A DNA stretch of 62,322 bases from Alphaproteobacteria bacterium (GCA_017467335.1 JAFTSJ010000040.1:1-62322), one strand, 5' to 3'; positions 10,756 through 48,112 are shown, numbered from the stretch's first letter. The notes: generated from the sequence alone by a model not told the origin. Translations and numbers: made by a program.

Positions 10756-11769
10756 TTGACGGATAAAATTGATTTTTCACAATTGGTTCAAGCGGAAGAA
10801 GGTCTTGTTTCTTGGGAAGACTTGTTTCCGGAATATGCCGTTGGTGGGGAATCTTTTAAAAGCGGTCAATTACATTCGCCATCATTTCCATCGACCTCAA
10901 GTCAATCGGAACAATCGACTTTAACGCAAGATGAAAAAAACAAAACGGTAACGGCTCATCGGTTTCAAGAACAAATACCGGTTGTTGAAATGTCTTCGTT
11001 GCCGGATATCCCGTCAATCACGGAAGACGATATTACATGGGATGATGAAGATAATTTATTTCCGACAGAAAATACAGCGTTGACTTCTTTAAACACACAA
11101 GAAGATTCTGTTTTTTCGACAACGGGTCATACACCGGATAGTGCGTTAAGTGTTAATGAAGATTGGTTGGAACGGGCATTAGCAGACGTTGATAGTGAGT
11201 TAGCACAAAAACAAAAATCAATCAAAAATCAGGATTATTGGACACAACGATTTAATGAAATGAATTTTGCCGGTATGGATTTAATGGCGGTTAGTTATTT
11301 TGGGTCCTTTACATATGATTTATTCGAACAACACATGTTATTGAAACGGGTAACACGGGAATTTGTTCGGCTGTTGAGTTATAATTATGCGATGGATTTG
11401 CGTTCAGCCGGTGTTTCGGAAGAAGGTATCTTTTATATGAAGAAAGGTAAAATTCCTGAAAATTTTACGGTTCATTTGAAATATCCGTTGGAATATGGCG
11501 GTACAATTGATTTTAACAATATGGTTTTTATGCAAGATAAACCGTTTCATGATTTAATACATGCGTATCTTGATGAACAAATACAAACACCGACCGGTAT
11601 TTCATATCCGTCATTATTATATGTTCCGACTCCGGTTGGTAAAATTTATGTACCGTTTGGTATGTTTACGGGATCGGGTGGTAAAAACAAGCAAGACAGA
11701 AGCGTATATGCCGGATTTTCAAAGGCGGCTTTTGACAAAATAGCACTTAAAGCGATGCCGGGGAGGTAA
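10756..11769 (+). CDS. Hypothetical protein with acidic disordered N-terminus and degenerate HNH-like toxin domain
   Basis: The C-terminal MKKGKIPENFTVHLKYPLEYGGTIDFNNMVFMQDKPFHDLIH resembles the G.QVHHKLPL..GGTN.F.NLVL...PYH HNH toxin motif. TTG start. Confidence 0.6.
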   Translation: MTDKIDFSQLVQAEEGLVSWEDLFPEYAVGGESFKSGQLHSPSFPSTSSQSEQSTLTQDEKNKTVTAHRFQEQIPVVEMSSLPDIPSITEDDITWDDEDNLFPTENTALTSLNTQEDSVFSTTGHTPDSALSVNEDWLERALADVDSELAQKQKSIKNQDYWTQRFNEMNFAGMDLMAVSYFGSFTYDLFEQHMLLKRVTREFVRLLSYNYAMDLRSAGVSEEGIFYMKKGKIPENFTVHLKYPLEYGGTIDFNNMVFMQDKPFHDLIHAYLDEQIQTPTGISYPSLLYVPTPVGKIYVPFGMFTGSGGKNKQDRSVYAGFSKAAFDKIALKAMPGR

Positions 11770-22778: not shown

Positions 22779-23216
22779 TTATTGTGTATTTGTTTTTTTA
22801 GGGGCACAAATAGCGTGTTTACCGCTATCGGCTTTTCCGAATGAATTTAAGGTCCCACTGTTGGGATTGATGACCCGAGCAACTGTTGTACTGGTACCAA
22901 CTTCTGTCCATGCAAATACATTACCGGTATAAGCTCCGACAATATTCGGACATGCACCGGCACCTGTTCCACCCAGCCATCTTTTTTCTTCACTAATATA
23001 ACATAAATCAGTTAAATTTCCCAATTTCATTGATTGAGATTCGCACCAAGCAAATGCACTCCACCAATTCATACCGATTTTACTTAAGCAATATTTTGTA
23101 CCGTTTTTACCTTCAATAGGGTGACCGCCATCACAATCAGCCCAAGAAGATGTTGATATAATACAACCTAAAGTGATAACGATTGAAAAAAATAAAGATT
23201 TTGGTTTTATTAACAT
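22779..23216 (-). CDS. Small secreted Cys-containing protein, C-type-lectin/Lcl-like
   Basis: Signal peptide and CDGG...GKNG..YCLS...MNWWSAFAWC motif. Paralog of 61615-61980. Confidence 0.75.
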   Translation of the reverse strand: MLIKPKSLFFSIVITLGCIISTSSWADCDGGHPIEGKNGTKYCLSKIGMNWWSAFAWCESQSMKLGNLTDLCYISEEKRWLGGTGAGACPNIVGAYTGNVFAWTEVGTSTTVARVINPNSGTLNSFGKADSGKHAICAPKKTNTQ

Positions 23217-23475
23217 ATGTTTTTCCTTTATATCTATTGCGAATATATTATATTTATACTGTATTTAAAAAGAAATCAAATAAAAAAAACAAACAGATTG
23301 ATTTTAAAGTGTAGAAAATATTTTTTTGTTTTATTATATTGTTTATCATAAATATTTTATATAATACAGTCCAAAAAACAGCCGTTAATTTTTTGTAAAA
23401 TATCCGTAAAAAAACATTTAAGATTTTTTCAAATGGCGAAAATAAAAAGAGAACTAAATCAATTTGTTAACTTAA

Positions 23476-23505
23476 AAAAATGTGTCAAAAAAACGTCCCT
23501 TTTTT
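23476..23505. repeat. Left inverted repeat (IRL) of a putative invertible promoter
   Basis: AAAAATGTGTCAAAAAAACGTCCCTTTTTT, 29/30 identical to the reverse complement of 23617-23646. It has an internal dyad TGTC-A7-cgtccc-T7-GACA. Confidence 0.9.
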
Positions 23506-23509
23506 TGAC

Positions 23510-23538
23510 ATAATATTTTAGATTTATTTCATTGTCAA
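23510..23538 (-). promoter_or_regulatory. Sigma70 promoter inside the invertible segment, pointing left
   Basis: Minus strand reads TTGACA (23538-23533), N17, TATTAT (23515-23510). Confidence 0.8.
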
Positions 23539-23616
23539 CTAAAATTTGTAATTATTTGATTTTTCATGATTTTTTTGTTTTTGAAAAAGTGTAACCCTTA
23601 CCAAAAAAAAGCGTTC

Positions 23617-23646
23617 AAAAAAGGGACGTTTTTTTGACATATTTTT
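23617..23646. repeat. Right inverted repeat (IRR) of a putative invertible promoter
   Basis: AAAAAAGGGACGTTTTTTTGACATATTTTT, the reverse complement of IRL with one mismatch. The asymmetric core is inverted (GGGACG). Confidence 0.9.
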
Positions 23647-23691: not shown

Positions 23692-25050
23692 ATGGAAATT
23701 TTAAACGCTTTTTTTAACGGATATTTTAAACAAAAAACAGCTGAAACAGGACGCAGTATGGTAGAAATGTTGGGCGTTTTGGCGGTTATTGGTGTTCTTT
23801 CAATCGGGGGTATTTACGGTTATACATTTGCGATGGATAAATATCTGGCAAATGAAACGTTAAATGAATTGAATACATTAGCTCACACACACGGTATGCA
23901 GATATATCAGATGATTGAAAAGGATGCTTTTCCATCTGACGATACCGTTTTAAGTGATGAAGATGCAAAAACCCGCTTAGGTTTTGATTACGAAGTTGCG
24001 GTATTCAGTGACCATTTTGAAATAGATGTTTTTGATGTGCCATATGCTATTTGTAATCAAATTCAACAAACGGCTTGGAATTTGCCATATGATGTTCAGG
24101 TTACAAATGCAACCACAGAAAAATGTGAAGCCGTTACGTATTTTTTTGATAACAATCTTTTCAGTCCTGATAATATGCAACAAGGCACGGGTGGTATCGG
24201 TAACAACAGTGATAATAATGATGGCCTTAATTGTGAAACAGGTTATTATGAAGAAGACGGTGAATGTTTTCCGGCACCGGTTATTTCTGCTCCCAGCCCT
24301 CAAGATTTTTCGACAGAATTAGTTATTGGTACCAAATATACCCATCAAATTCAAGCCAGTGTTACAGAAAATGCAGAACTTACTTATACGTTAAATAATG
24401 CACCGGCTACAATGCGTATTAGTAATACCGGTTTAATAACCTATAAACCAACATCAGATGATAATTCAAATGGCACGGTATCCGTTCAAATAACAGCTCC
24501 GCATGCACAGTCAGTCAGTGTTCAAGTGGGTTATGAAATAGCATTAGAAAGCCTGGGTGATTGTACTAATGTCACGATGTGTGATATTCAGCGAGATGGC
24601 ATGACTGTTAGTATTATTAAAGGTGGATTACAGGAATGTGGTCCGAATCAATTTTGTGCATATACAGGAACATTTTCTCCAACAACAGTTAATGACTGTG
24701 AAATCGGAAGTTTTAGAGGACCGGTTAGCGGAACATGTCAAACGGCTTCTCATGTAACGGAACTCGTTGGTTATCCCAAGGAATTTTTGGGAATATCTTT
24801 TATTTCTCAATGTTATGCTGGGGGTGGACGTTTGCCGTTTAAATCGGAATTGATAGCACAAGGGTTAAGTCCGGCTGATTATTGGTATGTGTCCGGTAAT
24901 ACATTTCAATTAGATGCAGAAATGGGTTCTTCAGATGTTAATCCGGTAGAATTTTTATATAATATTTATATGCCGTTTGACATGACCGCCGAACAAATGT
25001 TGAAGGCTTATAATACACGTAGTATTATTAAGTGTGTTTATGATGATTAA
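23692..25050 (+). CDS. Pilin-like (class III signal peptide) adhesin with Ig/cadherin-like domain and Cys-rich C-terminus
   Basis: ETG|RSMVEMLGVLAVIGVLSIGG N-terminus, an Ig-like LTYTLNNAPATMRISNTGLITYKP segment and a Cys-rich C-terminal region. RBS GGGGG. Confidence 0.85.
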   Translation: MEILNAFFNGYFKQKTAETGRSMVEMLGVLAVIGVLSIGGIYGYTFAMDKYLANETLNELNTLAHTHGMQIYQMIEKDAFPSDDTVLSDEDAKTRLGFDYEVAVFSDHFEIDVFDVPYAICNQIQQTAWNLPYDVQVTNATTEKCEAVTYFFDNNLFSPDNMQQGTGGIGNNSDNNDGLNCETGYYEEDGECFPAPVISAPSPQDFSTELVIGTKYTHQIQASVTENAELTYTLNNAPATMRISNTGLITYKPTSDDNSNGTVSVQITAPHAQSVSVQVGYEIALESLGDCTNVTMCDIQRDGMTVSIIKGGLQECGPNQFCAYTGTFSPTTVNDCEIGSFRGPVSGTCQTASHVTELVGYPKEFLGISFISQCYAGGGRLPFKSELIAQGLSPADYWYVSGNTFQLDAEMGSSDVNPVEFLYNIYMPFDMTAEQMLKAYNTRSIIKCVYDD

Positions 25051-45346: not shown

Positions 45347-45386
45347 AAAAAAACATAGATTGTTAGGGTATTGAAAGGAGTTGTTA

Positions 45387-46079
45387 ATGACAGGCAAAAA
45401 AGAATTGAGGGTTCAAGATTTATTTGATATACACCCGCTGGGTAATAAAAATGGCAATATGTGGAGTATTACATTAAAAAATAAGGCATATTCAGCATTG
45501 TCGCAAGAACAAAAATCGGTTGTTCGCAGTCAATTATGTTCTGTTAAATTATATGCCGGTAACCAAGTTTATCAAGATGGGTCTAATGATGTAAAGGGAT
45601 TTGATATAGCTCGCCGCCGGACGGGTGGTATCAGATACATCGGAACAAAAGAATTGTGTGATGATTTATTGCAAAAAATGGCAGAATCTCTAACAGATAC
45701 AAAATCAAACCGTGATTTGGTTAGTGAATTGTTCGTATCACGCCCGATTATTGGTTTTGGCGGACCGGTTAAAACATATACACTGAATAACAAAGCATAT
45801 GAATTGTTTTCTGATATGGACAAACAAAAGATTCGGGAAAGTTTGTGGGACATGGGTTTACCAATGCACGCAGGCGGTCGGTCATTGCCGGAACAATTGA
45901 GTGAAAAAGATTTTGATAAAGCTCGTAAACGTTTGGGTGGTTTATGGTTTTCAGGGGAACAAGGTATGTTGGAAGAAGCCGTCCAAAATATTCGACAAGT
46001 CTTATCAGGGGACAAAGCACGGGTTTTGGATTCTGTTACATTAAACATTCAACGGACACTTGCTGCTAAAACAAAATAA
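45387..46079 (+). CDS. Hypothetical protein with a two-fold internal repeat
   Basis: AAGGAG RBS and its own terminator. TLKNKAY...FDIARRRTGG is repeated as TLNNKAY...FDKARKRLGG. Confidence 0.75.
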   Translation: MTGKKELRVQDLFDIHPLGNKNGNMWSITLKNKAYSALSQEQKSVVRSQLCSVKLYAGNQVYQDGSNDVKGFDIARRRTGGIRYIGTKELCDDLLQKMAESLTDTKSNRDLVSELFVSRPIIGFGGPVKTYTLNNKAYELFSDMDKQKIRESLWDMGLPMHAGGRSLPEQLSEKDFDKARKRLGGLWFSGEQGMLEEAVQNIRQVLSGDKARVLDSVTLNIQRTLAAKTK

Positions 46080-47455: not shown

Positions 47456-48112
47456 ATGATATACGGATATATACGAATCAGTACCGATAAACAACAAGTG
47501 GATAATCAATTTTATGAAATCAAGCAATACGCTGAAAAACATCAAATTATTATAGACAGATGGGTAGAAGAAACCATCAGTTCAAGACAAGATTTAAATC
47601 GGCGAAAATTGGGTCCTTTACTTCGTAATTTACGCAGAGGAGATGTATTGATTACGTGTGAATTATCTCGGTTAGGACGTAATTTATTACAGGTTATGAG
47701 CATATTACATCATTGTATGTGTCGGGAATGTCAGGTATGGACCATCAAAGAAAATTACAGATTGGGGGCTGATATTCAATCAAAGGTATTGGCTTTTGCA
47801 TTTGGATTATCGGCAGAAATTGAACGTAATTTAATTTCACAAAGAACAAAGGAAGCCTTGGCTCGATTAAAAGCAGAAGGACAAAAATTAGGACGGCCGA
47901 CCGGTCGTCAGAACAGAGAAACAAAATTAAATGCACAAGTTACATTGATTCAAAGAATGTTAAAAAGTCGTGTTACAAAAGCACAAATTGCACAAGCTTG
48001 TAATGTTAGTCCATCCACATTGTATCGTTTTCTGAATGCGAAACAATTTGGCGATATGATGGCTGAATATTTAGCAGAAACGGATGAAGCTTATCAGATG
48101 TTAGATGAATAA
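47456..48112 (+). CDS. Serine recombinase, Mpi-like (multiple-promoter invertase) family
   Basis: MIYGYIRISTDKQ (catalytic Ser), ELSRLGRNL, VWTIKENYRLGADIQSKVLAFAFGLSAEIERNLISQRTKEALAR and a C-terminal HTH (VSPSTLYRFL). No adjacent transposase or element ends were seen. Confidence 0.88.
   Translation: MIYGYIRISTDKQQVDNQFYEIKQYAEKHQIIIDRWVEETISSRQDLNRRKLGPLLRNLRRGDVLITCELSRLGRNLLQVMSILHHCMCRECQVWTIKENYRLGADIQSKVLAFAFGLSAEIERNLISQRTKEALARLKAEGQKLGRPTGRQNRETKLNAQVTLIQRMLKSRVTKAQIAQACNVSPSTLYRFLNAKQFGDMMAEYLAETDEAYQMLDE

Follow-up and report, generated by a model that had tools for sequence, protein, structure and literature searches.

An Mpi-family DNA invertase of a gut alphaproteobacterium and the dispersed promoter cassettes that are its candidate targets

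About 40 near-identical promoter cassettes bounded by inverted repeats are present in the small genome of a gut alphaproteobacterium, next to genes for large pilin-like proteins, and their central segment is found in both orientations. We propose, with a probability of roughly 0.6, that an active, resident recombinase of the Mpi family, alone or together with its paralogs, flips these cassettes in trans and that the pilin-like genes would be switched in this manner. This recombinase is encoded in the 62,322-nucleotide stretch of DNA analysed here (hereafter, the window), which is contig C27 of genome G000 (1.32 Mb, 36% GC, 46 contigs, estimated to be 93% complete). Judging from its genomic context, the window invertase probably helps to switch pilin-like surface genes on and off.

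The invertase gene and the promoter cassettes

The ORF at 47456..48112 on the plus strand extends from an ATG to a stop codon and codes for a small serine DNA invertase of 218 residues. Its product is composed of a resolvase catalytic domain (PF00239, residues 2-143, 1.9e-31) and a C-terminal resolvase HTH (PF02796, HTH_7, residues 157-195), and it is closed by a short acidic tail (48040-48112). An earlier note on this DNA had recognized a close match to Mpi-family invertases in a quoted peptide, which corresponds to residues 94-137. The HMM check proposed there bears out the assignment, with a score of 300.9 bits against the NCBIfam model of the master DNA invertase Mpi family (NF009949, profile positions 1-197 of 203). 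Since this score exceeds the curated equivalog cut-off of 272 bits, the predicted protein is a genuine Mpi-family DNA invertase. The annotation is not new, as NCBI already labels such proteins of alphaproteobacterial MAGs as belonging to the Mpi family. The closest solved structures are those of Gin (4m6f, 3uj3), followed by the Tn3 and gamma-delta resolvases. The window protein aligns with Gin from end to end, its Ser9 falling on the Ser9 nucleophile of Gin, and Arg7, Ser9, Arg72 and Arg75 are invariant in an alignment of 16 Mpi-family members.

Two other sequence features were seen in the family. The catalytic-pocket motif D-R-L-G-R of Gin, Hin and the resolvases corresponds to E-L-S-R-L-G-R at 47660-47680; its Asp is replaced by Ser here, as in 16 of 16 aligned Mpi-family proteins, and a Glu two residues upstream of that Ser is invariant among them. 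An acidic C-terminal tail with a D/E-x-[LIM]-F motif is found both in the invertases of group OG-A, to which the window protein belongs (see below), and in a separate clade of the genus (G010_C5, G014_C29, G015_C1, G017_C16 and G001_C26). Each of the seven genomes richest in cassette hits has one tail-bearing invertase, an association confounded by relatedness.

The neighbours of the invertase gene are an arsenic-efflux-like gene (arsP), a PIF1-like helicase gene, rpmB, a hemerythrin gene, ychF and rpoBC. The 3' ends of the invertase gene and of the convergent helicase gene overlap by 19 bp (48094-48112), and this pair is kept in three other species. The cluster mates of rpoC at 90% identity or more are labelled Alphaproteobacteria, as is a genome of the same genus, in agreement with the host named in the earlier note. 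ORF searches and a Pfam/NCBIfam scan of the neighbours revealed no transposase or mobile-element genes near the invertase gene. There is no res-like repeat array within approximately 2.5 kb of it and no convincing inverted repeat flanking it within +/-2.5 kb, and the closest cassette is 24 kb away. The earlier description of the gene as solitary, with no transposase, res sites or invertible segment, is thus accurate for the surrounding 2.5 kb but not for the genome, which harbours four Mpi paralogs. Elsewhere in this neighbourhood, a gene directly 3' of rpoC (45381-46079) codes for a 232-residue protein with no family hit, 78% conserved in the related genome G009; this gene is followed by an intergenic region with a 21-23-nt direct repeat with a spacing of 112 nt (46214/46326).

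The cassette of the window (23484-23638) is 155 bp long, with two exact 22-nt arms enclosing 111 bp. In the repeat search, the left arm, GTCAAAAAAACGTCCCTTTTTT, was located at 23484..23505 on the plus strand and its exact reverse complement, the right arm, at 23617..23638 on the minus strand. Positions 23491-23500, in which the earlier note had seen an inverted repeat, do read AAACGTCCCT and lie within the left arm. The note had compared them with ARACGTWCGT, which it gave as the putative core of the Bacteroides fragilis Mpi target repeats. The 8/10 match carries no weight as evidence: at 8/10 or better the window holds 184 matches, compared with 193 +/- 12 expected from shuffled sequences. 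The string ARACGTWCGT was not found in the literature searched. In five Mpi-carrying Bacteroidota genomes, neither the IR-pair nor the extended-core patterns were enriched, the extended-core test being imperfect on account of added flanking bases.

Together with adjacent bases, the left arm forms a dyad-symmetric 28-bp site, TGTCAAAAAAA-CGTCCC-TTTTTTTGACA, which is the presumed crossover site. The hix and gix crossover sites of Hin and Gin consist of two inverted half-sites with A/T tracts and a short asymmetric centre. By analogy, the 28-bp site appears to be laid out in the same way, with half-sites of about 13 bp around an asymmetric centre.

The 111-bp segment between the arms (23506..23616, minus strand) contains a sigma-70 promoter. 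The promoter scan detected TTGACA-N17-TATTAT on the minus strand, with the -35 element at 23538-23533, the -10 element at 23515-23510 and 11 of 12 positions matching the sigma-70 consensus. This promoter is currently directed away from the type IV pilin-like gene at 23692..25050 (plus strand), which corresponds to the OFF state for that gene; inversion of the segment would switch it on. The gene codes for 452 residues and was assigned from its translation by motif only, the leader MEILNAFFNGYFKQKTAETG being followed by RSMVEMLGVLAVIGVL. On the other side of the cassette, the flank alignment places a terminator at 23408..23438 (minus strand), which is here a weak hairpin followed by a T-run. 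Beyond it, 290 nt further along and downstream of the promoter as now oriented, a gene for a 145-residue secreted Cys-rich protein (22779..23216, minus strand) points outward, in one of only 7 loci with an outward gene on this side. Because the promoter faces a weak terminator and then an outward-facing gene, the window switch may toggle between two genes, with the Cys-rich protein as its second output.

Across the 1.32 Mb of G000, the 22-mer has 63 exact copies, and its reversed control has none; this number greatly exceeds chance. They make up 24 complete cassettes and about 16 halves at contig ends, hence the estimate of approximately 40 cassettes. Copies of the full dyad TCAAAAAAA-N6-TTTTTTTGA number 40 in G000 and 50 in G009. 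In an alignment of 19 copies, conservation reaches 100% in the repeat arms, 95% in the interior and 83-91% in the flanks. Contig ends are found within 800 bp of a repeat in 34 of 92 cases, with 8% expected; the G000 assembly is thus fragmented because contigs break at the switch repeats.

The two flanks of the cassettes are of different types. Flank A comprises a 5'UTR, a Shine-Dalgarno sequence and a paralogous gene start (MEILNAFFNGYFKQK...G followed by RSMVEML...), and it recurs at 23 cassettes at least. The A-flank genes code for large proteins of 450-1000 residues that begin much like type IV prepilins: their N-terminal signal combines a Gly at -1 and a Glu at +5 with a hydrophobic helix. 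These proteins have no Pfam or NCBIfam hits, and we call them type IV pilin-like from the motif alone. Genes for a prepilin peptidase and for three ATPases of the PilB/T2SSE type are present in G000. Flank B usually has the form CCGTTTGG-loop-CCAAACGG-T7, which is a strong unidirectional terminator. In 27 of 34 cases, the neighbour on the B side is a gene running towards the cassette, and therefore the terminator would shield housekeeping genes from transcription in the OFF state.

Some pilin-like loci and repeats of G000 depart from this scheme. The sites at C16:31243 and C36:64856 carry the core of the G009 type, CGTACC, instead of CGTCCC; both are located at contig ends, and their interior is diverged (85-86% identity). 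At C5:44378-45739, two short genes for pilin-like proteins of 153 and 158 residues (MKRTNESGRSMVEML...) form a near-perfect, tail-to-tail inverted duplication with exact arms of 50-71 nt and no switch cassette. These genes may be major-pilin paralogs.

The candidate enzyme among the Mpi paralogs

Four full Mpi-family genes are found in G000, on contigs C27 (the window gene), C28, C18 and C38, in addition to a degenerate Mpi copy of 133 residues and one large serine recombinase. All four are more than 20 kb from any cassette, and therefore the enzyme that flips the cassettes would act in trans, whichever paralog it is. Mpi genes are present in 18 of 18 sampled genomes of the same genus, with one to six per genome. 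In a tree of 54 Mpi paralogs of the genus, three lineages are represented in G000. OG-A (SH-aLRT 99) comprises the window gene, G009_C10 (84% aa identity) and both G012_C2 and G005_C13 (74%). OG-B contains G000_C38 and G009_C70 and is limited to these two genomes. OG-C includes G000_C28, whose product is identical to that of G009_C77, as well as near-identical members in G005, G012, G016 and G000_C18. The OG-C loci are C28:657-1244 and C18:55689-56273 in G000, C77 in G009, C11 in G005, C9 in G012 and C193 in G016. The C18 copy, in which no start codon could be recognised, may be a pseudogene or rearranged at its 5' end.

Seven relatives (G009, G005, G012, G010, G014, G015 and G016; loci L107-L133) have their own multi-copy repeat family before pilin-like genes. 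Among these families of the genus, the half-sites are conserved and the 6-nt cores differ (CGTCCC, CGTACC, CGTTCC, CGGTCG, ACGTACG), being uniform within a genome and different between genomes. The cores of the genus follow the pattern AAACGT[C/A/T]C[C/G]T; that of G010, AAACGTACGT, would match the putative B. fragilis core ARACGTWCGT at 10/10 positions. The four genomes with the half-site TCAAAAAAACG, namely G000, G009, G005 and G012, have species-specific cores among CGTCCC, CGTACC, CGTTCC and CGGTCG. In 8 of the 11 elements sampled from relatives, a sigma-70-like promoter lies inside inverted repeats that adjoin a pilin-like gene and points away from it; the remaining three have no promoter hit, or no pilin-like start within reach.

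Cassettes with the TCAAAAAAACG half-site are found in exactly the four genomes that carry OG-A, a pattern confounded by relatedness, and in G012 and G005 only about 6 kb separate the OG-A ortholog from a cassette with a pilin-like gene. The half-site profile fits OG-A, and it would fit OG-C almost as well. On balance, we favour the participation of the window paralog in flipping these cassettes, and, given the arrangement of sites and genes, it may plausibly act in trans on the repeat at 23491.

A less likely alternative, which nonetheless deserves consideration, is that the cassettes are flipped by another Mpi paralog, either OG-B (C38) or OG-C (C28/C18), the window invertase being redundant or having another target. 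OG-B is restricted to G000 and G009, which are also the only genomes with 40-50 full-dyad sites, and OG-C extends to every one of the four genomes that have the A7-CG half-site and also to G016, both distributions being confounded by relatedness; in addition, two G000 sites have the different core CGTACC. However, a search for exact arms of at least 16 nt identified no second multi-copy inverted-repeat family in G000 that the window enzyme, or equally the other paralogs, might use, and the retention of OG-A in synteny in four species argues for function. Furthermore, OG-C is nearly invariant across species whose repeats differ. Its DNA identity between species amounts to 94-99%, compared with 80% for OG-A and OG-B between G000 and G009 and 69% for OG-A between G000 and G012, which suggests that OG-C has recently been exchanged within the genus.

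With the window paralog as the favoured enzyme, the proposed mechanism is as follows. Dimers of the invertase would bind the two repeats and then synapse. Ser9 would cleave at the central dinucleotide, and rotation of the subunits followed by religation would flip the 111-bp segment. In the ON state, the internal TTGACA-N17-TATTAT promoter would read into the pilin-like surface-protein gene, and in the OFF state it would read into the terminator. The window cassette would be one such trans target, at present OFF for its pilin-like gene.

Orientation of the cassettes and origin of the invertase

Every junction was oriented according to its type of flank and to the end of the interior adjoining that flank. 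In the OFF arrangement, the promoter-proximal end is at flank B (35 junctions) and the distal end at flank A (21-23 junctions). The ON arrangement, with the promoter-proximal end at flank A, was found at 2 junctions (C39:7116 and C46:365), and the complementary B-distal type at 3. In one case, the C8 cassette, the promoter faces an unrelated gene. Alignment of the flanks of paralogous copies places the orientation breakpoints inside the repeats. Moreover, the junctions fit within a single assembly k-mer, and therefore chimeric scaffolding cannot create them. Among paralogous copies, the same segment is present in both orientations relative to homologous flanks, which is the hallmark of an inverton; relative to these fixed flanks, the segment has thus inverted between its repeats. 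We infer that cassette inversion is ongoing. All three other assemblies of the window locus have the same orientation as the window, and the C39 ON locus had no match in the look-up of other assemblies. Public runs were examined as Logan contigs (k=31), which end exactly at 30-bp repeats, and a search for RNA runs found none.

Contig C46 has an unusual arrangement of two cassettes. That at 365-519 lies between two A flanks, and that at 11081-11236, at a distance of 10.6 kb, between two B flanks. The configuration fits an inversion of the intervening 10.6-kb segment, which includes the genes pgk and gap, and which would have arisen by recombination between two different switches.

Could the 155-bp elements be MITE- or REP-like dispersed repeats with terminal inverted repeats, which do not invert and are unrelated to the invertase? 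Their high copy number, their terminal inverted repeats, the near identity of their copies and the frequent assembly breaks next to them (34/92 contig ends) are compatible with such elements, as is the absence of same-locus orientation polymorphism in the three other assemblies of the window locus. Nevertheless, the conserved unit reaches into both flanks, namely the gene start and the terminator, and therefore the whole switch was duplicated together with the gene family. The interior occurs in both orientations relative to the flanks, with breakpoints within the repeats, and a near-consensus promoter is conserved inside the elements. They are located immediately upstream of a pilin-like gene, also in relatives with different repeats, and are associated with no transposase. 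We consider this reading very improbable and rejected it based on flank conservation and the presence of both orientations.

The history of the window gene was also considered. The order arsP-inv-pif1 is found in four species (G000, G009, G012 and G005), and the divergence of the window gene equals that of the neighbouring genes, with 80% DNA identity to the closest species. The closest database relatives of the window protein (62-84% identity) are unlabelled or alphaproteobacterial; among named genomes, identities are 58-74% in Alphaproteobacteria and 56-61% in Bacteroidota. In a quick tree of 98 rows, a very long branch separates the whole Mpi family from Gin, Cin and TnpR (28-31% identity), and the resolvase branch does not include the window protein. 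On one side of the tree, a single group (SH-aLRT 90) unites 34 Bacteroidota sequences and a small number of Firmicutes, Spirochaete and Cloacimonadota bins. The position of the window protein is among alphaproteobacterial lineages, the deep nodes being weak, and an AU test did not reject the joining of OG-A to the Bacteroidota group (p = 0.75). In evenly sampled genomes, the family is present in 10 of 301 Alphaproteobacteria, mostly with genomes of 0.9-2.0 Mb, and in 5 of 251 Bacteroidota. The window sequence occurs in samples of gut metagenomes, including goat.

In our view, the window gene is therefore a resident of the chromosome, passed on vertically, in a gut alphaproteobacterium with a reduced genome. 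Its recent horizontal acquisition from gut Bacteroidota on a mobile element is extremely improbable and was rejected: the approximately 60% identity with Bacteroidota Mpi proteins, a local drop in GC content to 31% at 46-48 kb, the patchy distribution in Alphaproteobacteria and the sister relation of OG-A to the Bacteroidota clade that the AU test leaves possible are outweighed by a gene order next to rpoBC, rpmB and ychF that four species have conserved, by a DNA divergence equal to that of the neighbours, by the alphaproteobacterial affiliation of all relatives closer than Bacteroidota, by the absence of mobile-element genes nearby and by an equally patchy distribution in Bacteroidota. Synteny and divergence contradict a recent transfer. 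The earlier note had suggested acquisition from gut Bacteroidetes or from a shared pool; a recent or recognisable event of the first kind is not supported, the closest relatives being alphaproteobacterial; a shared pool is plausible. Old horizontal spread via a shared pool would be in keeping with the identity of about 60% across phyla and the patchiness in both.

Relation to known systems

Most of what is established on global promoter inversion by a trans-acting enzyme comes from Bacteroides, whose capsule loci are controlled by Mpi. The Mpi protein of B. fragilis is summarized in PMC4747536 and PMC4611039 (citing Coyne et al. 2003) as a serine invertase of 13 dispersed regions, including 7 capsular-polysaccharide promoters. 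Like that system, the one described here involves a small serine recombinase of the NF009949 family with a C-terminal HTH, a gene located apart from its presumed targets, dispersed promoters flanked by inverted repeats of one shared sequence, and controlled products that are surface structures of a gut symbiont. It differs in its host, an alphaproteobacterium with a 1.3-Mb genome, in the number of targets (approximately 40 versus 13) and of Mpi genes (four paralogs versus one), and in the pairing of enzyme and sites, which here is a candidate one. Furthermore, the genes concerned are type IV pilin-like genes rather than polysaccharide operons, the promoters are of the sigma-70 type rather than the Bacteroides -7/-33 type, and a terminator is built into the OFF side.

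Promoter switches of Mycoplasma are driven by tyrosine recombinases. In the mpl (P35) family of Mycoplasma penetrans, each of 38 lipoprotein genes has its own invertible promoter, as outlined in PMC10502178 (citing Horino et al. 2003). The resemblance lies in one small invertible promoter per gene, some 40 surface-protein genes, a reduced genome in a host-associated bacterium and combinatorial ON/OFF variation of the surface. Nevertheless, the candidate enzymes are serine recombinases of the Mpi type in our case, the products are pilin-like proteins instead of lipoproteins, and the two systems have no sequence relation. By analogy, the architecture would work most like that of the mpl system, which points to convergence.

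Hin, Gin and Cin belong to the same superfamily and have the same order of domains, and their crossover sites also consist of inverted half-sites with A/T tracts and a short asymmetric centre. However, the identity with these proteins is only 29-31%, with a very long branch between, and they adjoin a single invertible segment, unlike the window gene. A local invertase of the Hin/Gin type was ruled out, since there is no adjacent inverted segment within +/-2.5 kb. The resolvases of Tn3, gamma-delta and Tn1721 likewise combine a resolvase catalytic domain with HTH_7, but the window protein shares only about 28% identity with them and lies outside their branch. A Tn3-type resolvase was ruled out in the absence of a transposase and of a three-subsite res site.

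We found no description of such a system in gut Alphaproteobacteria in the literature searched. Extending the proposal to the genus is more tentative, and we give it slightly less than even odds. Gut alphaproteobacteria with genomes of 1.3-1.8 Mb would then possess about 40 switches with one promoter per gene, i.e. approximately 30 per Mb, served by a few trans-acting Mpi-type invertases of which that of the window would be the resident enzyme. The switches would generate combinatorial variation of large type IV pilin-like proteins, using the same half-sites with species-specific cores (CGTCCC, CGTACC, CGTTCC or CGGTCG), and recombination between switches would invert segments of the chromosome.

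If so, the enzyme family known from Bacteroides would operate in an unrelated, uncultured, genome-reduced gut lineage, with pilin-like adhesins as its output and roughly ten times the switch density of Bacteroides. The switches would also explain why these MAGs assemble poorly, as contigs break there. Such bacteria might provide a natural model of how serine invertases choose their sites when half-sites are identical and crossover cores are species-specific, of how several paralogs share one family of sites, and of how small bacterial genomes may generate surface diversity.
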